Shown: positions 1,667 through 61,427 of the stretch, in pieces
How positions within the stretch are numbered: position 1 is the stretch's first letter
Layout of the letters: each line of letters opens with the position of its first letter
Assembly (NCBI GenBank): GCA_011939005.1
Contig: GCA_011939005.1_4858.1
Source: a phage
DNA: 64,000 bases
Reading direction: 5' to 3' (one strand)
The notes under the pieces: generated by a model
What the model was told of the DNA's origin: nothing
Databases searched by the model: none
The model's input: only the letters and a program-made list of their open reading frames with translations
Translations under genes and position numbers: made by a program

Positions 1667-3034
1667 TTAACGTAAATTAGCTGATGAGAATGGTAGGTTG
1701 CCTAAACTGCTGCTACTTCCGCCACCTAAACCACCCAGACCACCTAACACGTCACTACTCCCTCCTAAGAGGTTGGTGCTACCGCCGCCCAACTGCGTGC
1801 TACCCCCCAAGAGATTATTACTACTTCCCAGCAAACCAGAACCCAGACCACTTTCTTTCGTCACCGCATTACCACGCAGCGCTTCACCGAGAGACAGTTC
1901 TTTAATTGTCCCTTTCGGTAAATGGCCGTTGTTCTCACGCAGCGCTTCCTGAATCTTCGGTGCTAACGCGTTGAAGCTATTAGCTGAAGACGCCTGTTGC
2001 GCTTTCTTCGCACGGAAATAGTTTACCGGATCGTTGAGATCAAGATTTTCCTGCGGAGCTTGTTGAGAAGCTAAAGCAACGACCGGCTTTGTGCCGGCAG
2101 GTGTACGCCCGATACGGAAATCCGTTGCGGTGGTGTCTGTTGCCTGATCGGTGCGTGGGCCGGTATTATACGGCAGAGTTTGGATAACGTTATCATAAAC
2201 GCTCATGTTATCCAGTTGGCCAATCCATTCTTCTTCTAACGGACGCAGTGGAGTGTGGTCACGCAGACCACGAACCACTTGATTGTAGTTGGTCACGTAT
2301 TGTGCCCAACCGCGTGCCAAAGAACCGAAGTACGGACGCGGATCGTTAGAACCCGTAACCGAAGGATACCAACCAAACACTGCAGTGAGCAGGTTAAAGA
2401 TAATGACCTTATCCTGCTTACGCTGGAGCTTGGCACCGAAGAATGTTGCCGTACCATCCAGTGACTCTTCTTCAAACATGTGTTTGTAGTTCGCCACGCG
2501 GATATATTTGATACCTTCAATGGTCATATCGCTGGAGATGAAGATACTGGTGATCTTTGTCTTTTTATCTTCTTCCAGCAAACCGTAAACGTAGTTCTTC
2601 ACTGCGTGCCAGCTCTGAACCAGTTTCTTATCCATCGTCGGATCTTTCAGGTCAGCACAAACCACATCGCTTAAAAACTTCTTGTACGATGCCAGACGGA
2701 TATTTTTTCCTTCGGCTGCTGTTTCCAAAATCGCATCGATTAACTCGAAGCTTTTCAGGAAGAGGTTCGCGCTGATGGCTTTCTTCAGGAAACGAATCGT
2801 TCCAGATTCGCCAGCCAGTACCGATTCACACAGTGGGTGGAACGCATGACATTCACTACCTTCGTCATCTTCCAACCCACGCTTAATCATCGCTGCAGTT
2901 GGAAGCACCAAGCGGCGCTTCACTTTGTTGTAGGTGAACATTGCCGGATGACCATCATCGATGGTCAACATGTCACCTTCGAATCCGTATCCGAGCGAGG
3001 TCAGAAACGAACGGTAGAATTCAATCAATTTCAT
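1667..3034 (-). CDS. hypothetical protein with Gly/Leu-rich C-terminal tail (possible virion protein)
   Basis: 455-aa ORF; C-terminus LGGSTQLGGGSTNLLGGSSDVLGGLGGLGGG resembles tail of adjacent 3047..4747 product. Confidence 0.65.
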   Translation of the reverse strand: MKLIEFYRSFLTSLGYGFEGDMLTIDDGHPAMFTYNKVKRRLVLPTAAMIKRGLEDDEGSECHAFHPLCESVLAGESGTIRFLKKAISANLFLKSFELIDAILETAAEGKNIRLASYKKFLSDVVCADLKDPTMDKKLVQSWHAVKNYVYGLLEEDKKTKITSIFISSDMTIEGIKYIRVANYKHMFEEESLDGTATFFGAKLQRKQDKVIIFNLLTAVFGWYPSVTGSNDPRPYFGSLARGWAQYVTNYNQVVRGLRDHTPLRPLEEEWIGQLDNMSVYDNVIQTLPYNTGPRTDQATDTTATDFRIGRTPAGTKPVVALASQQAPQENLDLNDPVNYFRAKKAQQASSANSFNALAPKIQEALRENNGHLPKGTIKELSLGEALRGNAVTKESGLGSGLLGSSNNLLGGSTQLGGGSTNLLGGSSDVLGGLGGLGGGSSSSLGNLPFSSANLR

Positions 3035-3046
3035 GGTTAATAATCC

Positions 3047-4747
3047 TTAATCAATGAGACCGTTGCCGAGTCCGTTTCCGCCTATACCGCCTAAGCCACC
3101 ACCCAGGTCAAGACCTCCAAGAGGATCTAAGCCACCTGTGTTAGTTGGAATGTTAGATAGCATTCGACCCCGGCCTTGGCCTTTCTCGAATTCTGTATAA
3201 CCTTCTTCTACGGCTTTCAACAGCGTTGCGGTGTTCTGTGCCAGCTCACCAACGTATTTGAGATCGGTGGTGTTGCCGGTATGGAGACGGAATTGCATAA
3301 ACGACGCGTAGGTGTAATATTCCAGCGGTTCGTCGTCGACACGGATTTCAATACGAGTAACGGTCCCCAACAATGCGGTGACCAGCATGTGGCAGCGAAT
3401 ATGGTTATGTTTAGTAACCTGAACCATCGCTTCTTTCATGTTCTGCAAGAAACGACGACCTAACGCAGCAGGTAACTGATGGTGCGTGATGCTGCTGACT
3501 GAGTTAGGAATAACTTCCAGCGTAGGCTCTATCATGATATCTGTGTTGCGATTATCAAAGACAAAGCTCACTTCACCAATCAGGTTACGTGACATAATCG
3601 GCCCGATAGACATAGCCAGATCATACGCAACTAGACTACCCTGTGTGGAGAAGCCATTACGTCCAATCCAGTGGTCGGTTTGGTTAACCAGCCCTGCACC
3701 CAACCCACGGCGACTTGCCAGCGCCAGCGATTCACGGATACATTCATCCAACCGCATTGGGTTGACAATCGCATTACGCAAATCAGCCAAACGGAACGTC
3801 GCCTTACTGGTTGCTTTCCAACCGCCAGATACATCAGACATCCCGTTCTGGAGTGCTTGACGCATCGCAGCAATCAGTTCGTGGTTGCTGTAGTTACGGA
3901 TAACACCACGTTGCTTCAATTCAGATTCAACGCCGATGGAGTTATTACCTGCAAAGAAGCTTTCCACGCTACCGAGTTCGGTATCTACCCCAGAACTTGC
4001 CAGATACGCATTACTGATTGCAGATACGTAGTTTTCTGGACGCTGGAGTTGGGATACCATCAACTGTGGTGCAGAGCTACTGGTTGCGGATAGCACAGAG
4101 TCGCTCGTTGGGACGAACTTCTCACCGCTATTCATTTCAATACGTTTTACCATGTCCGCCGCTTTCGCGATCGAAATGATATCTACCGTACTTTCTGTTT
4201 GACCTTCAACAGACAACGCTTTCGATAAAACGTAGTTATCCAGTAGACGGAATGAGTCTGGGTTCAATGTTTTGCCGCCCAGGGCATCGTGTGTATACGT
4301 TGCCTGTAAGCCGTAGATGTCGTTAATGTACAACACCATATCGTCCGGCAGCAAGCTACCCAGGCTGGTTTCTGCCTGACTGGTATAACCGGAGACGATA
4401 TATTGCGTTTCCTGAGTGCGTGTTGCATTCAGAGGTTTGGCAATAAACACCGCCACGAAGTTAAAGATACCGGTATCACGTGATTCCCATTGGAACTGTA
4501 CAGGACGATTGTCATCATCGGACACGTTGATGAATGGACGCTCAAAACCATTCTGGGTGCCATCGAAGCCCACGATGGCAGATAATGCTTCTTGATACTG
4601 CTGTGTTCCCACAGCCTTTTCCCCGCCCAGTTCAACCGCTGCTGCTAAGTCATCCAGTGCACCCGTCGATGCGTTAAAGCCGATGCGGCGACGAACTTGC
4701 TCTGGAACATCGTAGACCGGATACATCAGTAGATTTACAAGCTGCAT
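3047..4747 (-). CDS. hypothetical protein with Gly-rich C-terminal tail (possible virion protein)
   Basis: 566-aa ORF; C-terminus GGLDPLGGLDLGGGLGGIGGNGLGNGL; tandem with 1667..3034. Confidence 0.65.
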   Translation of the reverse strand: MQLVNLLMYPVYDVPEQVRRRIGFNASTGALDDLAAAVELGGEKAVGTQQYQEALSAIVGFDGTQNGFERPFINVSDDDNRPVQFQWESRDTGIFNFVAVFIAKPLNATRTQETQYIVSGYTSQAETSLGSLLPDDMVLYINDIYGLQATYTHDALGGKTLNPDSFRLLDNYVLSKALSVEGQTESTVDIISIAKAADMVKRIEMNSGEKFVPTSDSVLSATSSSAPQLMVSQLQRPENYVSAISNAYLASSGVDTELGSVESFFAGNNSIGVESELKQRGVIRNYSNHELIAAMRQALQNGMSDVSGGWKATSKATFRLADLRNAIVNPMRLDECIRESLALASRRGLGAGLVNQTDHWIGRNGFSTQGSLVAYDLAMSIGPIMSRNLIGEVSFVFDNRNTDIMIEPTLEVIPNSVSSITHHQLPAALGRRFLQNMKEAMVQVTKHNHIRCHMLVTALLGTVTRIEIRVDDEPLEYYTYASFMQFRLHTGNTTDLKYVGELAQNTATLLKAVEEGYTEFEKGQGRGRMLSNIPTNTGGLDPLGGLDLGGGLGGIGGNGLGNGLID

Positions 4748-10365: not shown

Positions 10366-10944
10366 ACACGTCGCGCCAAGTTCCGAACAGGGATCACCAT
10401 CTTCCCAGTCGAAAGCTGACATGCGTGCCCAGTTAAGTTGAATATCCACTTTATCGATTCGACTCAGTCGTACTGCACGATCTTCATTGGTAGCCCATTG
10501 CCAAATCTTATCTTCGTCGTACTTCGTCGAAATGCCCGATGTTGCTTCGCGGAAGTGGTCATCGGTACGCATATACGCATTGCCTTTGAACACATCCAAC
10601 CGAGAAAAGCCGTTCTCATAACCAGTCGCCATACCGTCATTATACAACTTACGATATTCCGGCATGGCAACGAGGAATGGCTGTAAAGCAGCATTGGCGA
10701 ACTGGAATTCACCCAACTCTTCGATCTGTCTTACCATCTCTACCGCATCGCTATAACGTAATTTACGTGCGGTACTGAATGTTTCACGGAAACGCTCCAG
10801 TGAGATTAAGTCCTGACAATGTTCTTTTACACGGTCAACGAGATCGGGTGCCAGGCTAGACAGCGAAAACGATTCTTTGAATACGCTGAGTGCCCCGCTA
10901 CCTTCGGTCTGTTTCGTCCACACCGTGCTACCTTGTAGCCACAT
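10363..10944 (-). CDS. hypothetical protein (193 aa)
   Basis: ORF followed by terminator. Confidence 0.55.
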   Translation of the reverse strand: MWLQGSTVWTKQTEGSGALSVFKESFSLSSLAPDLVDRVKEHCQDLISLERFRETFSTARKLRYSDAVEMVRQIEELGEFQFANAALQPFLVAMPEYRKLYNDGMATGYENGFSRLDVFKGNAYMRTDDHFREATSGISTKYDEDKIWQWATNEDRAVRLSRIDKVDIQLNWARMSAFDWEDGDPCSELGATC

Positions 10945-10957
10945 TACAATACTCCTA

Positions 10958-11230
10958 TTAGCCCATCACCGCTTCCAACGGAATGCCTTCTTCATCATCC
11001 TCATCTGCTTCAATAAGGAACTGGTTCTGCATACTGATTAGCTCGTTATGTAAAACCATGCCGTGTTCTACGCGGTCCACATCAGTAGAAGACATAAAGC
11101 CGTTATCTGGACGGAATTGGAGCGCCAACTTCATCTCAGTTTCATCGACTGGTAAACGTACCTGGAACTGGTCGCCATCAAAATCCTGTTTGTCCACTCC
11201 AATCCTTTTGGAGCAGGTGTGTAGTAACAC
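10958..11230 (-). CDS. 3' exon of split RNA polymerase beta-prime-like N-terminal subunit (contains catalytic DFDGD motif)
   Basis: Translation LLHTCSKRIGVDKQDFDGDQFQVRLPV resembles bacterial beta-prime [24 protein letters not shown]; the track start codon is probably not used, the exon being joined by splicing. Confidence 0.6.
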   Translation of the reverse strand: MLLHTCSKRIGVDKQDFDGDQFQVRLPVDETEMKLALQFRPDNGFMSSTDVDRVEHGMVLHNELISMQNQFLIEADEDDEEGIPLEAVMG

Positions 11231-12640
11231 CCTCCCTAACTTTCACTAGGGCACAGACCATACCTTAGCCATGAGCTTTCGCTTTTAGGCTCCTCCCCAC
11301 TTCGGTGCTATTCTAAGCACCTACGAGCATTTCAGCTCCGGTCGTTGAACGTTCCTCTTACGAGGCTTCGCTGCTGATTACCCATTGTTAAAACCCTTAG
11401 CAGTATTGTTTAGCATAGGTCATCTCATTACTTGTTTCCGACTTTCGTCTCCACATGGGCAAATGAGCTTTAGGGGTTCCCAGCAATTCAGGGAGATACA
11501 CATCAGAGGTTTCCCGTCTGATGGGGCAAGGCTATTCTGCTGTTAAATATTGAACTTCAAATTGTTTGTACTTTCCGGTTTGTGAGACTGCTTTGGCCAC
11601 AGTGTTTCTTTTCACACCAATCGCGTTTGAAAACTCTTGTAAAGAATTCCAAATGGTTTTGATGTTAGTGGTCGTATCAGTCACACGCACCATCGACGGT
11701 ACACGTTTTGGCATTTGTGATTGTGGTCTGGGTTTGCGGAGATCGATCATGTCAGTTATGGCAACATCGATATCCACCATGTACCACGCCTCATATCCAA
11801 ACTTAGTCAAATCGACGGAACCGCCGTTGAGATGGGAATAGATGAGGTGTGGTTTTATACCCACGTATTCGGCTGCTGCCGGTACAGACGAGAACAGGAA
11901 ATATGGTTCCTTACCAACTTTTCTGATGACCAGTCCTTTATTACCTGGTCCTGAGTTCTTACCAATAGAATTCTTGGTGAGAATCCAGTCGTCTTCCGGT
12001 ACCTTGACTTCAAACACATCATTTAGCGTGTATTGACGATTAAGCCCACGTGCGATCGAGCTTGAAACCAAGTGCCGATTAACGCCGATATACTCAGCCG
12101 CCTTAGTCATGCTACGGAACTGAACTATATCGCCGGTCTCGAGATTTCTGACATCGACAATAATGTTGTCAGTTCTTAGACCAGTATCGAAAGCATGATT
12201 AACATTTTCCTTTCGATAACACCACTCAAGGTTTACCACAGATGGATTACTCTTAACACCATCACGATGGTTAACCTCGTCACCACATTTATCCAGGAAC
12301 ACAGTCGCAACAATTCGATGTAAATGGGTTTCGCCTTTACAACCGCGCACTCCCAGGTATCCACTTTTGAGAATGAAGACTGGTAGCGGCGTGACCATAC
12401 CTTTTACTTTACAGTCGCCCAATGCATCAACAAAGAGATCACGATAGACTGGGTGTCTGTAATACCCCTTAAAAACATACGAGGGCTCTAAATCATCGCG
12501 TAGTTTCCTACTCAACTTTTCAATAATCACAATTTATTCCCTATTACCAGTCACCGACTAAGAATAAGGAATAGCAGAATAACACTTTTACCGTTAGCCA
12601 TCTTGATCACACGGTCAGAGATACGCAGCGAACACTGGTT
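11231..12640 (-). mobile_element. group I intron with embedded HNH homing endonuclease gene (boundaries approximate, within about 15 nt)
   Basis: Interrupts a beta-prime-like reading frame; 300-nt core (11231..11531) carries P-like AATTGCTGGGAA (11475..11489), Q-like AATCAGCAG (11371..11379) and R-like GTTCAACGAC (11341..11350) in canonical order on the sense strand; a G precedes the proposed 3' junction at 11231. Confidence 0.6.
11532..12530 (-). CDS. HNH homing endonuclease (intron-encoded)
   Basis: HNH core VNHRDGVKSNPSVVNLEW...NVNHA plus three repeated helix-turn-helix-like modules (AAEYIGVNRHLVSS, AAEYVGIKPHLIYS, SNAIGVKRNTVAKA); GTG start about 20 nt after the exon-readthrough stop. 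Confidence 0.75.
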   Translation of the reverse strand: MIIEKLSRKLRDDLEPSYVFKGYYRHPVYRDLFVDALGDCKVKGMVTPLPVFILKSGYLGVRGCKGETHLHRIVATVFLDKCGDEVNHRDGVKSNPSVVNLEWCYRKENVNHAFDTGLRTDNIIVDVRNLETGDIVQFRSMTKAAEYIGVNRHLVSSSIARGLNRQYTLNDVFEVKVPEDDWILTKNSIGKNSGPGNKGLVIRKVGKEPYFLFSSVPAAAEYVGIKPHLIYSHLNGGSVDLTKFGYEAWYMVDIDVAITDMIDLRKPRPQSQMPKRVPSMVRVTDTTTNIKTIWNSLQEFSNAIGVKRNTVAKAVSQTGKYKQFEVQYLTAE

Positions 12641-13957
12641 AACATCGGTAACAACTTCGTCGATGAACAGCGTCTGAATAGACAACTGTACCAGCGTTGG
12701 GTTACGTAGCGGTATGACCATGATCCCAAGACCGCCTGGGGATTCACGAATCAGTTCTTTAAAGATTTCGTCTACAAGCGGGTCATACTGCATTGCCGCT
12801 TTTGCGACGATACGTTCACACTGCCGTGACGAATAACCGCGTCGTAGCAGTTTGTTCTCGATGTGGGTCGACATCAACCCAACCATCCAACGCCATGGTG
12901 CTTTTAACTTCCAGGCATCGTGTGGTTCTGAGATAGGTGAGATGGTTGCACGACCACCGAACGGGATGTGGGTAGAACCCAATTTCGCACGATAGTCACC
13001 CGGTTTACCTTCCATAGACTCACGACGGAAGTCCATGTGGAAGTACGTTAGCTGACGGTTCGCCTTCAAAGCACGACTAATCAGAAAACGTGGTTCGATC
13101 GCTTTACGCCGCGTATAGAGCAACGCGATATTTTTCACCGCGTCAATAGCACCCGTGAACACTGGGTCTACCATGACACCACGACGACCTTCCTCAGTAA
13201 CGATAAGTTTAGAGGAGATTAGCGGTAAGTGTCTTGGGAAGAATGCATGGCGTTGCGTTTCGAATAGCTCCTTCCATTGTAAACGTAAGCGTTCACCTTC
13301 AGCGGCGTTATGCCGATTAGGTGCGAAGATTTCCTTCCAGGCTTCTGGCGTGGTAAGGATGTTAAAGATACTAACGTGGTTATCAACCAGATTGCGCAAG
13401 CCACGAACGAAACCATGTTCTTCCAATACACGTTTCACAGCATGTGCGCGTTTACCGTCTGGTTCTTCTATACGGTAATACGGGTCAATCATCCACATCA
13501 TCAAGTCATTACCGCGTTCGATAGTGACCTTGTTACGTTCAAACTTCTTCAACTTGCTATTAAAGAAAGCATTGAACATTGCCCAGAATCGTGGGTTGAC
13601 GAAGTTACCCATTTCATCGGGTGCACGTAACCAGACATCGGATTCAATTCGATGTTCAGTTACAACATAGCCACACGTCGGACACTTACAACCGAGATTG
13701 TAACGATGCGCGATCGGTGCCGGACAATCCAAACTACAAATCGGTGCAGAGTTCAGTTCTTCGTCAACGATTCTGTTCTGTACCATGCGATCGATAAGTT
13801 CAGCAACCTCGATCGCATCCCCGTTAACGGCGACATCGTTAATAATAGTGGGTGGTTTAATACCTTTGGCAGCAGCTTCTATTTGCAAATCGGACAAATA
13901 GTTATCCTGACTAACCAACCGGCCGGATATTCCGTAGAATTTTGGTACCTTTCTCAC
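12551..13957 (-). CDS. 5' exon of split RNA polymerase beta-prime-like N-terminal subunit (exon proper about 12641..13957; frame reads through into intron to stop at 12551)
   Basis: Zinc-finger-like CPAPIAHRYNLGCKCPTCG and LRNPTLVQLSIQTLF (compare beta-prime NRAPTLHRLGIQAFEP); ORF ends before the DFDGD motif. Confidence 0.65.
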   Translation of the reverse strand: MRKVPKFYGISGRLVSQDNYLSDLQIEAAAKGIKPPTIINDVAVNGDAIEVAELIDRMVQNRIVDEELNSAPICSLDCPAPIAHRYNLGCKCPTCGYVVTEHRIESDVWLRAPDEMGNFVNPRFWAMFNAFFNSKLKKFERNKVTIERGNDLMMWMIDPYYRIEEPDGKRAHAVKRVLEEHGFVRGLRNLVDNHVSIFNILTTPEAWKEIFAPNRHNAAEGERLRLQWKELFETQRHAFFPRHLPLISSKLIVTEEGRRGVMVDPVFTGAIDAVKNIALLYTRRKAIEPRFLISRALKANRQLTYFHMDFRRESMEGKPGDYRAKLGSTHIPFGGRATISPISEPHDAWKLKAPWRWMVGLMSTHIENKLLRRGYSSRQCERIVAKAAMQYDPLVDEIFKELIRESPGGLGIMVIPLRNPTLVQLSIQTLFIDEVVTDVNQCSLRISDRVIKMANGKSVILLFLILSR

Positions 13958-13974
13958 ACTGTCAACCTCAACAA

Positions 13975-14012
13975 AAAAAGAGGGAAGGACGGAGGCGTTA
14001 GCCCCCGTCCGT
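13975..14012 (-). terminator. hairpin plus U-run downstream of 14040..15893
   Basis: GGACGG...CCGTCC stem followed in minus sense by TTCCCTCTTTTTTT. Confidence 0.35.
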
Positions 14013-14039
14013 TTCCTAACTACTCAGTAACCGATTCGA

Positions 14040-15893
14040 TTACAGTTTGAAGTTGCTCAGAGTCACGCCCAGACCGAAATCGGAACCGCTTGCAGACAGG
14101 CCGTTGCCAGACAGCGTGAAGTCTTCCCCACCGTTGTTGAAGAACAGAGAGGTCGCCATCGTGTTGTAGGCATTTACACCAGTCATAGACCAGGTGCAGT
14201 TGTTACGGACGAAGTCCAGCAGGCATTTACCGAAGATCGGGTTGATAGCCATATCCAGAGATTCACCGGTAGCTTGCGGTGCTTTGGATGCGAACAGAGA
14301 AGCGGCCAGTTTCAGCATGTAGATACGCTGTTGACGCTCGTTCAGTTCACGGTGGCTGTAGGACTGTGCGTTCAGGTAGCTATAGACGTCGTTCGCGTTA
14401 TCACCCAGTTTGGTAACAACGGAAATCAGGTCCATATCCTGGAAGCTACGTTTCTGTGCAGTACCGGTGTAAACACCGGAAACAGTCGGTACGGCTGCTT
14501 TCACGATGTGGCTGCAATGGATGGTACCATTGAAGGCATCGCCCAGCTGTGCTTTCAGTGCAGAAGCAAATACTGCAGTGAAGCTGGTCGCTGCAACAAC
14601 TTCGCCGTTCTGATCACGCGGGGACATGGAATTCAGAATAGCGAGCAGCTGTTTCAGAGAGTTGTCGTAACCGACCGCAATTTCAGACAGCAAAGTAGAC
14701 AGACCACCCAGGCCGTTACCGGCACGATGGCTAACTACCAGTGCTGCTTCACGCGGTGCGAACATATCCAGGCAACCTTCGATAGCTTCACGGCTACCGT
14801 CGATTTTGGATACATCAGGACGAGCGTCAGCACCCCAGGACAGGTATTCTGCCACACGGGAGAACTTGCGATCTTGTTTGTTCAGACGTTTCACAAACAG
14901 GTCACGCCAGCCACCGATTGCCGCGATTTCTGCAAATGCAGCCAGCAGCAGCAGTTGACGTTCATACGGTGCCATTGCACCTTCAGTTTGAGAATCGATC
15001 AGACTTACTACGATTTCAGCCTGCAGCTGTTTCAGGTCGTAGACGCCGTTAACGACAGGCTTCTGACCGGTGAAACGCATATTGACGAAACCGGTACCGG
15101 ATACACGCGGATACACCTGTACCTGATTGGTGTCCAGCAGAGTCGGAGTGGCGTCGGTTACGTTGCTTGGGCTGTGCTCAACGGTGATTGCGAAATCAGC
15201 ACGCTGTGCGTGGCCGTTAGCATCAACAACCGCACCATCTTCCAGCGGCATTACTGCGGCCTGATAACGGTCATGCTTACGCAGGTTCAGCGTACCCAGG
15301 TAGCCTGCGATACGACCGAAGATGCCCATCATCATCTGACCCATCAGAGTACGTGCCCACTCAGCATCCAGAACTTTACCCAGGTCTGGTACGGAGTTGA
15401 TGATCATGAAGTTCGCATTGGTCAGACCATGCGCTTCCATGATGTTTTTCTGTACTACTGCCAGCACGTCTTTGTTGAACAGTTCAGTGATGGTGTAGTA
15501 GTCTTCCTGGCCGTTGTTGGTAGTTTCTTTCAGACGCAGAGACTGACCGCGTTCAAAGAAGATGATACCGTACAGCCAGTGGCCCTGCCATTGGCCTGCG
15601 ACGTACGCCGCGGAACCCATTTCGTTACCCACGCCGACGATGGTGCCCCAGCGGAATGCGTTGAGGTATTCGTTGCTTTTCTTCAGCTCATCCAGGAGGT
15701 TGGTGAAGTGCATTGCATAGGTGCTGATGTTGCGGATGCCAAATGCGTTATCGAATTGGCTGACAGTAGAAGTACCCGGCACAGCAGTTTGCACTTTTAC
15801 AGTCTCGTTGCCCAGACCGCCCAGTGGTGCGGTGTCTTGAGTCTGAGTGTTGTTCTGCTGAGCGTTGTTGTTAGAGTCAACGATTTTTACCAT
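14040..15893 (-). CDS. hypothetical 617-aa protein, apparently monocistronic; candidate abundant protein (phage-nucleus shell protein or capsid protein; unverified)
   Basis: AAGGAA RBS; two motif copies upstream and a terminator downstream; low-complexity N-terminal (NNNAQQNNTQTQ) and C-terminal (GNGLSASGSDFGLG) tails around an ordered core. Confidence 0.7.
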   Translation of the reverse strand: MVKIVDSNNNAQQNNTQTQDTAPLGGLGNETVKVQTAVPGTSTVSQFDNAFGIRNISTYAMHFTNLLDELKKSNEYLNAFRWGTIVGVGNEMGSAAYVAGQWQGHWLYGIIFFERGQSLRLKETTNNGQEDYYTITELFNKDVLAVVQKNIMEAHGLTNANFMIINSVPDLGKVLDAEWARTLMGQMMMGIFGRIAGYLGTLNLRKHDRYQAAVMPLEDGAVVDANGHAQRADFAITVEHSPSNVTDATPTLLDTNQVQVYPRVSGTGFVNMRFTGQKPVVNGVYDLKQLQAEIVVSLIDSQTEGAMAPYERQLLLLAAFAEIAAIGGWRDLFVKRLNKQDRKFSRVAEYLSWGADARPDVSKIDGSREAIEGCLDMFAPREAALVVSHRAGNGLGGLSTLLSEIAVGYDNSLKQLLAILNSMSPRDQNGEVVAATSFTAVFASALKAQLGDAFNGTIHCSHIVKAAVPTVSGVYTGTAQKRSFQDMDLISVVTKLGDNANDVYSYLNAQSYSHRELNERQQRIYMLKLAASLFASKAPQATGESLDMAINPIFGKCLLDFVRNNCTWSMTGVNAYNTMATSLFFNNGGEDFTLSGNGLSASGSDFGLGVTLSNFKL

Positions 15894-29312: not shown

Positions 29313-29313
29313 T

Positions 29314-29382
29314 TGCTTTGACCGGACTCGAACCGGCGACCTTCCTCGATGAGGCTGCTCTACCTACCTGAGCTACAAAGCC
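29314..29382 (-). pseudogene. tRNA-like element, truncated (69 nt) with aberrant anticodon/variable region
   Basis: Minus-sense acceptor GGCTTTG/CAAAGC, D-arm GCTC-AGGTAGGTA-GAGC and T-arm GCCGG-TTCGAGT-CCGGT are good, but the anticodon stem has a mismatch and the variable loop is about 3 nt too short. Confidence 0.3.
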
Positions 29383-30736: not shown

Positions 30737-30812
30737 TGGCGGGGGCACGAGGTTTCAAACCTCGAACCTTCGGTTTTGGAGACCGGTGCGCTACCAATTG
30801 CGCCATACCCCC
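30737..30812 (-). tRNA. tRNA-Trp (anticodon CCA), CCA end encoded
   Basis: 76-nt cloverleaf: 7-bp acceptor, D-arm GCGC-AATTGGTA-GCGC, anticodon loop CTCCAAA, T-arm CGAGG-TTTGAAA-CCTCG; one C-A mismatch in the anticodon stem and T at position 56. Confidence 0.7.
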
Positions 30813-59813: not shown

Positions 59814-61427
59814 TCATTTCAACAGCGCAGCAGTCGTTCTTTTAATCACGTTGTTAACCGGATTGATTTTGAAACTGCCGTCTGTTGCAAACCAGTAGTT
59901 TTTCGAACTGACCCACTTCCGATTTTCCTCGAGCGCTTCGGTTGACATCGGGCAGTTTGCTGAGCCGGTGTCACCATCGTAGTCACCACCCAATCCACCT
60001 AATCGGGATGGATGTGGTGCCATGGATTCCACAAAGGTTTTCACGGTACGGTCAGGGAAACTAATTGCACCCTTCTCTTTTAACGTGACCCAATCGTCTT
60101 CCAGTTCATGCAAATAGAGGGAAGAAGTGGTGGTCTCCAATCTTATGGTCGAGGAGTAAGTCGAACCGCGTCCCGTAACCGGATAACGCGTGATGAACGA
60201 GAAGTAGTCATTCCAAATATCGTAACCTGACAAATAGAGGAGTTCTGCTAAGCTCAGTCCGCGGACAAGCTTACGGTCACGTCCTTCCGGCAGGTCTTCA
60301 ATATCGTAAAAGATTTTGAAGCTGCGTTTGTCTTGGTAGATTAATGCCACGTAATGGTCCGGATCAATCATCAGCGGTTTATGTCGAAGCTCGCGCGCTT
60401 CCATTCTGTTGATGAGTGTTTCGATGCCATCGTCGGTAGTGAAAAGGTCATACACCCGCCCGGAGACTTCCAGGAACTCACGCTTGAGTGTTTTGGTGTT
60501 AACGCCGTATAAGTTGCCGTCCCCTGCCCGGATGTTACTGAGGTAACGTTCACGGATGTGGTATTGCGCCACAGGCAGTAATGCCTTCAGGGTTTGGTAC
60601 AAACCGATACGGGTATCCGTTGGACGAATCGCATCTTCGCGACCCATGACCTTGGAACCGGTTGAGAATGAAGACAGCACGTTACGCGTACCGTTCATTA
60701 ATTTACGTGACGTCACTTTACGACGTGCAAAACCACCTTTACCGTCTTGGATGTTGAAGAAGTACATCCAGATGTCATTAAAGGTTTGTTGGAGCTTCCA
60801 GCGAACCGGGTCAGTCAGTTCCGTTCGCGTACTGCGGTCGGGGATTGCACGTGCCAGAGAAATCAGACGGCGGTAGAGTCCGCCAATCTCTTCTTCTTGG
60901 TCGCGGCCATCCTGACGAATGACCAAATCACGTAATCCTGCAGGCAGAACCAGCACATAGCGGCTGAGACTGACCGGACGGAACTTATTGAAGAAATCGA
61001 CTGTCTCGTCGCGACGCATCGACTCGTTGCGTCCCGGAGTCAGTTGTTCGTAGTAGCGTAGGAAGAAGTTGAAGCCGGTGTCTGCACCTTTATCACTGGG
61101 CAGAGCCGGCTCGAAATCTTTTTCTTTCTCATTCCAGATAGCGAATCGCTTCCCGGAACAGATTTCTTCGTACAGCTGTTTCAGCTGGAACAGTGCCAAA
61201 CAAACGGTCGGCGAAATGATATCCAGTTTGATATCAATGTACGAGAACGTTGAGTCTCGTGCCTCGCTCCCTGTGAGGCCAAATATTTCGGTTGAATACA
61301 GTCCTTCAGGGTGAAAGTTTTTCGTCAGTCCCTGAAAGGTGTCTGTTGTTGTAACTGGTTTTAAATGCGACACCAGGGACTTGTTGACGTTTAACAAGTA
61401 AAAGTCAACCCAGTTTAGCTTTCTCAC
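59814..61427 (-). CDS. multisubunit RNA polymerase beta-prime-like N-terminal subunit (intronless paralog)
   Basis: EGLYSTEIFG (compare DGLFCEKIFGP), LPAGLRDLV...GGLYRRLISLA (compare IPPDLRPLV...DLNDLYRRVINRN), catalytic GDYDGDT (compare NADFDGD); ends about 40 aa after the catalytic motif. Confidence 0.7.
   Translation of the reverse strand: MRKLNWVDFYLLNVNKSLVSHLKPVTTTDTFQGLTKNFHPEGLYSTEIFGLTGSEARDSTFSYIDIKLDIISPTVCLALFQLKQLYEEICSGKRFAIWNEKEKDFEPALPSDKGADTGFNFFLRYYEQLTPGRNESMRRDETVDFFNKFRPVSLSRYVLVLPAGLRDLVIRQDGRDQEEEIGGLYRRLISLARAIPDRSTRTELTDPVRWKLQQTFNDIWMYFFNIQDGKGGFARRKVTSRKLMNGTRNVLSSFSTGSKVMGREDAIRPTDTRIGLYQTLKALLPVAQYHIRERYLSNIRAGDGNLYGVNTKTLKREFLEVSGRVYDLFTTDDGIETLINRMEARELRHKPLMIDPDHYVALIYQDKRSFKIFYDIEDLPEGRDRKLVRGLSLAELLYLSGYDIWNDYFSFITRYPVTGRGSTYSSTIRLETTTSSLYLHELEDDWVTLKEKGAISFPDRTVKTFVESMAPHPSRLGGLGGDYDGDTGSANCPMSTEALEENRKWVSSKNYWFATDGSFKINPVNNVIKRTTAALLK

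Follow-up and report, generated by a model that had tools for sequence, protein, structure and literature searches.

Phage phiKZ was predicted in 2002 to carry introns with the endonucleases gp56, gp72 and gp179 (Mesyanzhinov, as cited in PMC11512511 and PMC10914365). In phage PhiPA3, the HNH nicking enzyme gp210 is encoded inside an intron that interrupts the beta gene of the virion RNA polymerase (RNAP); it confers an edge in competition with phiKZ (Birkholz et al. 2024, PMC11620839). We analysed a 64,000-nucleotide (nt) stretch of phage DNA (contig GCA_011939005.1_4858.1; the whole stretch is called the window here, and position 1 is its first letter). An earlier note had proposed that a beta'-like RNAP gene in this window is interrupted by a group I intron carrying an HNH gene, and had cited reports of intron endonucleases that target RNAP genes in nucleus-forming Pseudomonas phages, as weapons against co-infecting relatives; PhiPA3 gp210 shows this precedent to be real. 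The interruption was supported by empty-site comparison, a covariance-model match, covariation and domain searches. Judged by these sequence comparisons, the insertion is indeed a mobile group I intron that carries the gene of an HNH homing endonuclease, and it lies immediately upstream of the catalytic-triad codons in the gene for the beta'-N subunit of the non-virion RNAP (nvRNAP). We regard the explanation as a whole, a mobile group I intron of 1404 nt that contains an HNH open reading frame (ORF) and whose excision restores a 531-amino-acid (aa) subunit, as highly probable.

The phage is an SPN3US-like Salmonella jumbo phage (Seoulvirus). A nucleotide search with the gene region gave 98.9% identity to Salmonella phage SaP7 and Proteus phage 7, and the exons were 95-99% identical to about 30 other SPN3US-like genomes. 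As the earlier note had described, the ORF list contains three minus-strand ORFs of 468 aa (12551..13957), 332 aa (11532..12530) and 90 aa (10958..11230), the last of which holds DFDGDQ. The intronless SPN3US allele is one uninterrupted 531-aa coding sequence (CDS), SPN3US_0023 (gp23). We aligned the window with SPN3US, EC001 and SaP7 and found that, relative to the intronless SPN3US allele, it carries an insertion of exactly 1404 nt, 11186..12589 (-), between exon 1 ending in ...KMANG (GGT, T at 12590) and exon 2 beginning with DFDGDQ... (GAT, G at 11185). Conceptual excision restored the reading frame and yielded a protein identical to SPN3US gp23 at 531 of 531 residues, with the junction ...RVIKMANG/DFDGDQ... 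(here and below a slash inside a sequence marks the splice or insertion point). Matches began exactly at the first base of exon 2 in all nine intron-bearing records. Moreover, the PHROG 2987 profile breaks at the same point, with profile positions 1-417 covering residues 8-456 of the 5' ORF and positions 418-477 covering residues 16-75 of the 90-aa ORF, which independently confirms the junction. Read-through of the intron accounts for the final 12 residues of the 468-aa ORF and for the initial 15 of the 90-aa ORF.

The earlier note had joined VVTDV near 12641 to LLHTCS at 11230 and expected a product of about 525 aa; both ends were misplaced by about 50 nt, and the product has 531 aa. That junction was rejected, as a product joined there would lack NQCSLRISDRVIKMANG of gp23 and contain LLHTCSKRIGVDKQ in addition. 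The ligated exons are predicted to read ...ATGGCTAACGGT followed directly by GATTTTGATGGC... in the mRNA, also written as ...AAGATGGCTAACGGT followed by GATTTTGATGGCGAC..., and the junction-spanning tryptic peptide of the predicted spliced protein, with MANGDFDGDQ at the junction, lies in MANGDFDGDQFQVR. The intronless site of SPN3US is GTGATAAAGATGGCAAATGGAGATTTCGATGGTGAC, and the spliced-junction sequence of the window is …GCTAACGGTGATTTTGATGGC….

By homology, the minus-strand gene at 10958..13957 is the beta'-N subunit gene of the phage non-virion multisubunit RNAP, the counterpart of SPN3US gp23 and phiKZ gp55. The spliced product matched chain A of 7ogp ('PHIKZ055 ... PHIKZ056.1'), the phiKZ nvRNAP beta'-N subunit, at E 5e-39 over residues 52-494, and the alignment ran unbroken across the junction (window side kmanGDFDGDQfqvrl). 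Bacterial beta' subunits were also matched in the PDB search, more weakly. The ORFs of the spliced gene matched PHROG 2987 at E 4e-155, including the DxDGD metal-binding loop. Pfam matched no family on the two exon ORFs, for which the PHROGs and PDB searches were informative instead. The RNPTLVQLSIQ motif, labelled rudder-like in the earlier note, was misnamed there: in the alignment with phiKZ gp55 it falls on the conserved beta' segment just upstream of NADFDGD. Its E. coli counterpart is 'RAPTLHRLGIQ'.

A second polymerase gene in the window, at 59814..61427 (-), is uninterrupted and encodes a 537-aa protein with GGDYDGD near its C-terminus; it belongs to PHROG 2986 'RNA polymerase beta subunit' and is presumably the beta'-N counterpart of the virion RNAP. 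The earlier note had taken it for an intronless paralog of the interrupted gene. The spliced product showed no significant similarity to it (BLASTP E 1.5; PHROG 2986 versus 2987), and it was set aside as a comparator in favour of the intronless allele, SPN3US gp23.

The group I fold put forward in the earlier note was borne out by a match to the full RF00028 (Intron_gpI) model, positions 1-253, at 11234..11562 (-), with E 2.3e-10 in a local search and 7.8e-9 over all 64 kb of the window, and fell short at the gathering score (47.0 bits vs 50). Because of these 3 bits a default Rfam scan at the gathering threshold reported no intron, and the E-value mode was needed; the match is the sole Intron_gpI match in the window. 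The homologous element scored above the gathering score in all nine fetched relative loci (51.8-80.4 bits), including the SaP7 copy, which has three base differences from the window core and 51.9 bits. Many jumbo phages carry relatives of the core (104 records). The P, Q and R elements that the earlier note had placed in canonical order within this core do stand so, together with S (P/Q/R/S at 11488-11477, 11379-11370, 11350-11340 and 11266-11254).

We then aligned seven cores, from the window, EC001, Raoultella VB_ZK_P1, Vibrio 2 TSL-2019, Pseudomonas vB_PQ1, EL and the phiKZ-like T2P. The RNAalifold consensus recovered P2, P3, P4, P5 with its extensions, P6/P6a, P8, P9, P9.1 and P9.2, and the P7 pseudoknot was added by hand before pairs were counted. 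Over the resulting 70 pairs, 93.9% of cells were paired, as against 36-47% when the partners were slid by 1-3 columns, and compensatory double changes occurred in 33 of the 70 pairs, as against 7-13 in the slid controls. None of 500 shuffles reached the observed pairing and covariation values. The core helices P3-P9, including the P3/P7 pseudoknot, are thus supported by covariation; in P7 itself there is one compensatory change, from C-G to U-A in three of the seven sequences. P7 is followed, ahead of the 3' strand of P3, by the two hairpins P7.1 and P7.2, which point to subgroup IA, the common one in phages.

The splice sites carry the hallmarks of the class, a U.G wobble between U12590 and G11527 at the 5' site and a terminal G, 11186, at the 3' end. 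Read from the sequences, P1 covaries with exon and intron: GGU/UC pairs with GAGCC in EC001, GCU/AA with UUGGC in Raoultella and GAU/AG with CUGUC in Vibrio. A group I intron fits both the ribozyme core and the boundaries at the level of single nucleotides. Coordinates of the gene, the intron and its helices are collected in the table.

Table. Features of the interrupted nvRNAP beta'-N gene and its intron in the window (all on the minus strand)
Feature	Position	Strand	Details	Basis
Exon 1, nvRNAP beta'-N gene	12590..13957	-	GTG start at 13957; 456 codons; ends ATG GCT AAC GGT, U at -1	SPN3US_0023 empty-site alignment
Exon 2	10958..11185	-	75 codons + stop; starts GAT TTT GAT GGC GAC = DFDGD catalytic Mg-binding triad	Empty-site alignment
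Group I intron	11186..12589	-	1404 nt; 5' end A12589; terminal omega-G 11186	Absent from SPN3US allele
In-frame stop closing exon-1 read-through	12551..12553	-	After 12 intron codons	ORF list + junction
Hairpin	12535..12573	-	3' arm holds AGGGAA, like a Shine-Dalgarno sequence, before the endonuclease GTG start	Minimum-free-energy (MFE) and centroid folds, z -2.4
HNH homing endonuclease ORF	11532..12530	-	332 aa; GTG start; in P1 loop	Domain and profile searches
P1 5' strand GGU/AA	12588..12592	-	Splice site after U12590; pairs with UUGCC 11525-11529	
Internal guide sequence UUGCC (P1 3' strand)	11525..11529	-	Complementary to GGU/AA 12592-12588	
P2 hairpin	11502..11522	-	Compensatory changes in 7/8 pairs	
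P3	11490-11496 / 11292-11298	-	Encloses P4, P5, P6/P6a, the P7 5' strand, P7.1 and P7.2 within 11292..11496	RNAalifold consensus + pair counts
P4	11480-11485 / 11372-11377	-		RNAalifold consensus
P5 with extensions	inside P3, 11292..11496	-		RNAalifold consensus
P6; P6a	11369-11371 / 11349-11351; 11363-11365 / 11354-11356	-		RNAalifold consensus
P7 pseudoknot helix	11339-11345 with 11255-11260	-	Guanosine-binding site region; 6 pairs, 100% paired	
P7.1; P7.2	11325-11338; 11304-11321	-		Read from sequence + MFE fold
P8	11267-11291	-		RNAalifold consensus
P9	11234-11251	-	Compensatory changes in 3/4 pairs	
P9.1	11216-11231	-	Compensatory changes in 1/5 pairs	
P9.2	11196-11214	-	Compensatory changes in 4/5 pairs	

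The 332-aa ORF, noticed by the earlier note as an HNH endonuclease between the exons, proved to contain HNH and NUMOD1 domains. It lies wholly inside the P1 loop, where 2 nt separate its stop codon from the internal guide sequence. NUMOD1 was found by Pfam in two stretches (55.1 bits, cut-off 22.8), a third repeat of the NUMOD1 type was visible in self-similar BLASTP segments, and TIGR01453 matched partially. The ORF also matched the I-HmuI structure 1u3e across the HNH motif (E 4e-4), PHROG 59 'HNH endonuclease' (E 3e-29) and phiKZ gp56 (29% identity, E 4e-19). In a four-way alignment of the window protein with phiKZ gp56, EL gp25 and phiKp_32 orf160, residues N87, H88, D90, G91, N95, N100, L101, E102, W103, N109 and H112 were invariant, and because these catalytic-motif residues are kept in all four homologs the ORF looks intact. 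The hairpin ahead of its GTG start has an analogue in phage EL (AUUCCUCU/AGGAGGAAU), likewise before the GTG start of the endonuclease; the predicted fold suggests that the hairpin at 12535..12573 may regulate endonuclease translation. Such sequestering of a ribosome-binding site resembles the translational control of I-TevI in T4 td.

The proposed mechanism would run as follows. In the pre-mRNA, the end of exon 1 and the first intron bases (GGU/AA) would form P1 by pairing with the guide UUGCC, which lies some 1.06 kb further downstream. The core, which is IA-like and comprises P2-P9.2 together with P7.1 and P7.2, would bind guanosine, cut after U12590 and then ligate exon 1 to G11185, after the terminal G11186, so that ...KMANG-DFDGDQ... 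and the 531-aa subunit would be restored. By analogy with I-HmuI and PhiPA3 gp210, the 332-aa endonuclease, I-HmuI-like and with three DNA-binding repeats of the NUMOD1 type, would nick intronless alleles of the beta'-N gene in a co-infecting relative, and repair after the nick would copy in the intron with a few flanking bases (homing). We infer splicing in vivo, the activity and target of the endonuclease, homing and a competitive benefit.

Three allele states were found among the GenBank genomes of Seoulvirus: three genomes carry the endonuclease-bearing intron, six have at precisely this site a divergent intron of about 356 nt that lacks an ORF, and some 24 have no intron there. Search coverage was 100% for SaP7 and Proteus phage 7, with 78% in the fragmented SPFM1 assembly; about 66% for EC001, Lh1B, JN03, SPLA3, SPLA5c and 1252; and about 54% for SPN3US, SEGD1, most SPFM phages, SPLA1a and MET_P1. 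Core identity between the two intron types is only 75%, against at least 97% for the exons, a difference that suggests either that they were acquired separately or that the polymorphism is an old one. Upstream of the junction, the intron-bearing alleles that were read (window, SaP7 and EC001) have GCT AAC GGT, and the three intronless alleles that were read (SPN3US, SPFM17 and SPLA1a) have GCA AAT GGA. The intron is linked to synonymous differences at three positions, -7, -4 and -1. P1 requires the U at -1, whereas the changes at -7 and -4 would fit either co-conversion or a protected target site. Junction-specific scans of IMG/VR gave no matches to the two intron junctions, and the empty site matched SPN3US itself only. 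A literature search found no paper on the present intron in SPN3US-like phages, whose reference strain SPN3US is itself without the intron.

In the GenBank records OM456492 (SaP7), MN445185 (EC001), MT679221 (Proteus phage 7) and NC_007623 (EL), each exon is entered as a CDS of its own, named 'RNA polymerase beta subunit 1/2' or hypothetical and inconsistent in its start, the intron is unannotated, and the endonuclease is labelled hypothetical or, for EL gp25, 'putative replication protein'. The Goslar record annotates Intron_gpI between two RNAP-related genes.

On the other side of the balance stand several points that weigh against a splicing intron with an active endonuclease. The RF00028 score misses the gathering score, Pfam HNH_3 in the 332-aa ORF reaches 20.0 bits against a cut-off of 24.8, P1 must form across a 1058-nt loop, and the P10 pairing, judged by eye, is weak, at about 3 bp. 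Moreover, a long-read transcriptome study found no spliced reads for the homologous introns of phiKZ (PMC10914365). Splicing of the phiKZ homolog is indirectly supported, because in the solved phiKZ polymerase gp55 contains DFDGD at 417-421 (PMC8287921), beyond the annotated exon-1 ORF.

If nothing were spliced, the locus would be a gene split by a free-standing endonuclease cassette, and the 468-aa and roughly 90-aa fragments would be translated separately and assemble. Jumbo-phage RNAPs are indeed built from beta/beta' subunits that are split into fragments (PMC7598289), the frame of the 90-aa ORF is kept and it has a GTG start, and GenBank lists the pieces as separate CDSs. However, a complete, covariation-supported group I core lies between the fragments, the boundaries show both hallmarks, U.G and omega-G, and bring the product back to 100% identity with an uninterrupted allele, and such a split would fall one residue ahead of the catalytic aspartate triad and add 12 + 15 foreign residues there. 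The GGGAGG that abuts the GTG at 11230 without a spacer is poorly placed for initiation, and the annotated 3' CDSs of SaP7 and EC001 disagree. We therefore consider a gene split very improbable. Hardly more credible, and if anything less so, is an intron dead for splicing, which would make the gene a pseudogene here, or an assembly artefact. The Rfam shortfall could be read in this way, as could the fragmentation of the SPFM-series assemblies in this region (BLAST). Against this, the same insertion occurs at 98.9-99.7% identity in the independently sequenced SaP7 and Proteus phage 7, and the differences of the window from SaP7 break no helices (e.g. A-U to G.U in P9). The beta'-N subunit also holds the sole DFDGD of the non-virion polymerase and would be expected to be indispensable, judging from phiKZ (PMC8287921).

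A different possibility, which we regard as unlikely, accepts the splicing intron and denies the homing: the endonuclease would no longer be an active homing enzyme, and the element would persist as a vertically inherited passenger in a few Seoulvirus lineages, without current mobility or a competitive role. Carriers are only three GenBank genomes and the window, six relatives keep an ORF-less intron at the same site, and HNH_3 falls under its Pfam cut-off. In I-HmuI, the Asp before the catalytic His binds metal; the window has Asn at this position in the 1u3e alignment. This Asn is, however, invariant together with the rest of the N-H-x-D-G...N...N-L-E-W...N..H motif in the phiKZ, EL and phiKp_32 homologs, and the carriers keep the ORF at its full length of 332 aa, with 99.4% conservation. 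The patchy spread among exons at least 97% identical, with the synonymous changes at -7, -4 and -1, also looks like horizontal spread with co-conversion. The preferred reading remains a mobile intron whose endonuclease may still home. A further step from it is possible, though we hold it doubtful: the active-site codons of the nvRNAP would be a contested site within one phage species, Seoulvirus SPN3US, either empty or occupied by the ORF-less intron or by the 75%-identical endonuclease-bearing one, the endonuclease would be an interference weapon against intronless relatives in a shared phage nucleus, and the ORF-less intron and the three synonymous changes (GCA AAT GGA to GCT AAC GGT) would be immunity alleles. 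If this reading, drawn by analogy, were true, the PhiPA3 gp210 principle would hold for another polymerase, another gene and the phages of enterobacteria as well.

These results correct the way in which an essential gene is annotated, since the SaP7, EC001, Proteus phage 7 and EL records split its exons into separate 'RNA polymerase subunits'. Near-identical culturable Salmonella and E. coli jumbo phages, with the state of the intron at the active site of the polymerase as their sole difference, offer a natural three-allele system for studying homing and competition; intron-mediated competition has so far been demonstrated only for PhiPA3 versus phiKZ.

Directly upstream of the RNAP gene lies a 617-aa gene at 14040..15893 (-), a candidate chimallin gene. 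Its position is that of the annotated nuclear shell protein (chimallin) genes in phiKZ (gp54) and in the Vibrio and Photobacterium phages; it had no match among solved structures in the PDB at E<=1, and its PHROG 8316 carries no assigned function. A scan of 10800-14200 for sigma-70 promoters and terminators gave nothing above chance, as expected for a phage that uses its own polymerases. Elsewhere in the window, of the two stretches at 30737..30812 (-) and 29313..29382 (-), one holds a tRNA-Trp (CCA) gene (ARAGORN; Rfam 63 bits) and the other is a weaker tRNA-like Rfam match (37.7 bits) that ARAGORN did not call.

The DFDGD-coding codons of the jumbo-phage nvRNAP beta' gene are a recurrent insertion site across genera. 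The gene is interrupted at four points within the N-A-D-F-D-G-D stretch of five or six codons, with guide sequences adapted to each site: N/A in phiKZ; A/D or G/D at the first aspartate in the window, EC001, EL, Raoultella and Klebsiella; D/F in Vibrio and Photobacterium; and G/D before the last aspartate for a second element in Raoultella and Klebsiella. In Vibrio 2 TSL-2019 and Photobacterium PDCC-1 the intron apparently sits one codon downstream (NAD/FDGD), and the guide sequence matches this position. The cores of Klebsiella phiKp_32 and Raoultella VB_ZK_P1 are nearly identical and lie at the same junction as in the window, with the endonuclease ORF present in the former and absent from the latter. 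These two loci differ, at positions 2484-2858, by a 339-aa HNH ORF in the P1 loop, and the loop of the ORF-less copy is ACAUA. The pair suggests that the endonuclease module is gained or lost cleanly, independently of the ribozyme.

In the same two phages we observed a second intervening sequence of about 316 nt (locus 2871-3186), 12 nt past the 3' splice site of the first intron. It splits DFDG (mini-exon GAT TTT GAC GGT) from D-TMYCYVL..., begins with a P1-like hairpin, GGU/AA-ACGUA-UUGCC, and folds strongly (z -3.7). Rfam gave no match at E<=10, and its only relatives lay in parts of Aeromonas jumbo phages that bear no annotation. Either RF00028 misses a divergent intron here, or the gene is truly split within the catalytic triad.

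Compared with the described systems, the intron is by sequence homology the counterpart of the arrangement already known in phiKZ, and gp24-26 of phage EL have the same architecture. The phiKZ locus shares the gene and the gene order (shell protein gp54, gp55, HNH gp56, gp56.1, with the 617-aa gene of the window in the place of gp54), a homologous group I core (RF00028 score of 80 bits for T2P, a phiKZ-like phage; identity with the core of the window about 48%) and a homologous HNH/NUMOD endonuclease in the same place between the 5' splice site and P2. It differs in that the insertion lies one codon upstream (N/ADFDGD versus NG/DFDGD in the window), host and phage genus are different, and the sequences are highly diverged. 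EL gp24-gp25-gp26 has the identical junction (NA/DFDGD), a homologous endonuclease in the P1 loop (27% identity, E 4e-19), a similar 3' intron end (GGACAAGUG versus GGACAAACAG) and a core of 54.9 bits to RF00028; its core is only about 55% identical to that of the window, and gp25 is annotated as 'putative replication protein'. With PhiPA3 gp210 the window shares an I-HmuI-like HNH nickase, a putative group I intron and a jumbo-phage RNAP gene interrupted beside conserved catalytic aspartates. The PhiPA3 intron, in contrast, lies in the virion RNAP beta gene (gp211/209, phiKZ gp178) and not in the non-virion beta'-N gene, and its competitive effect was demonstrated by experiment. The SPO1 DNA polymerase intron with I-HmuI and T4 td with I-TevI are likewise of the subgroup IA type and sit in an essential gene's active-site region, and I-HmuI belongs to the same HNH nicking family (1u3e). 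These classical introns differ from the window in their host gene, and homology and synteny alone place the window phage in a group whose transcription is kept apart from translation. In classical phage group I introns the ORFs sit in P6a or P8, whereas the window ORF lies in the P1 loop.

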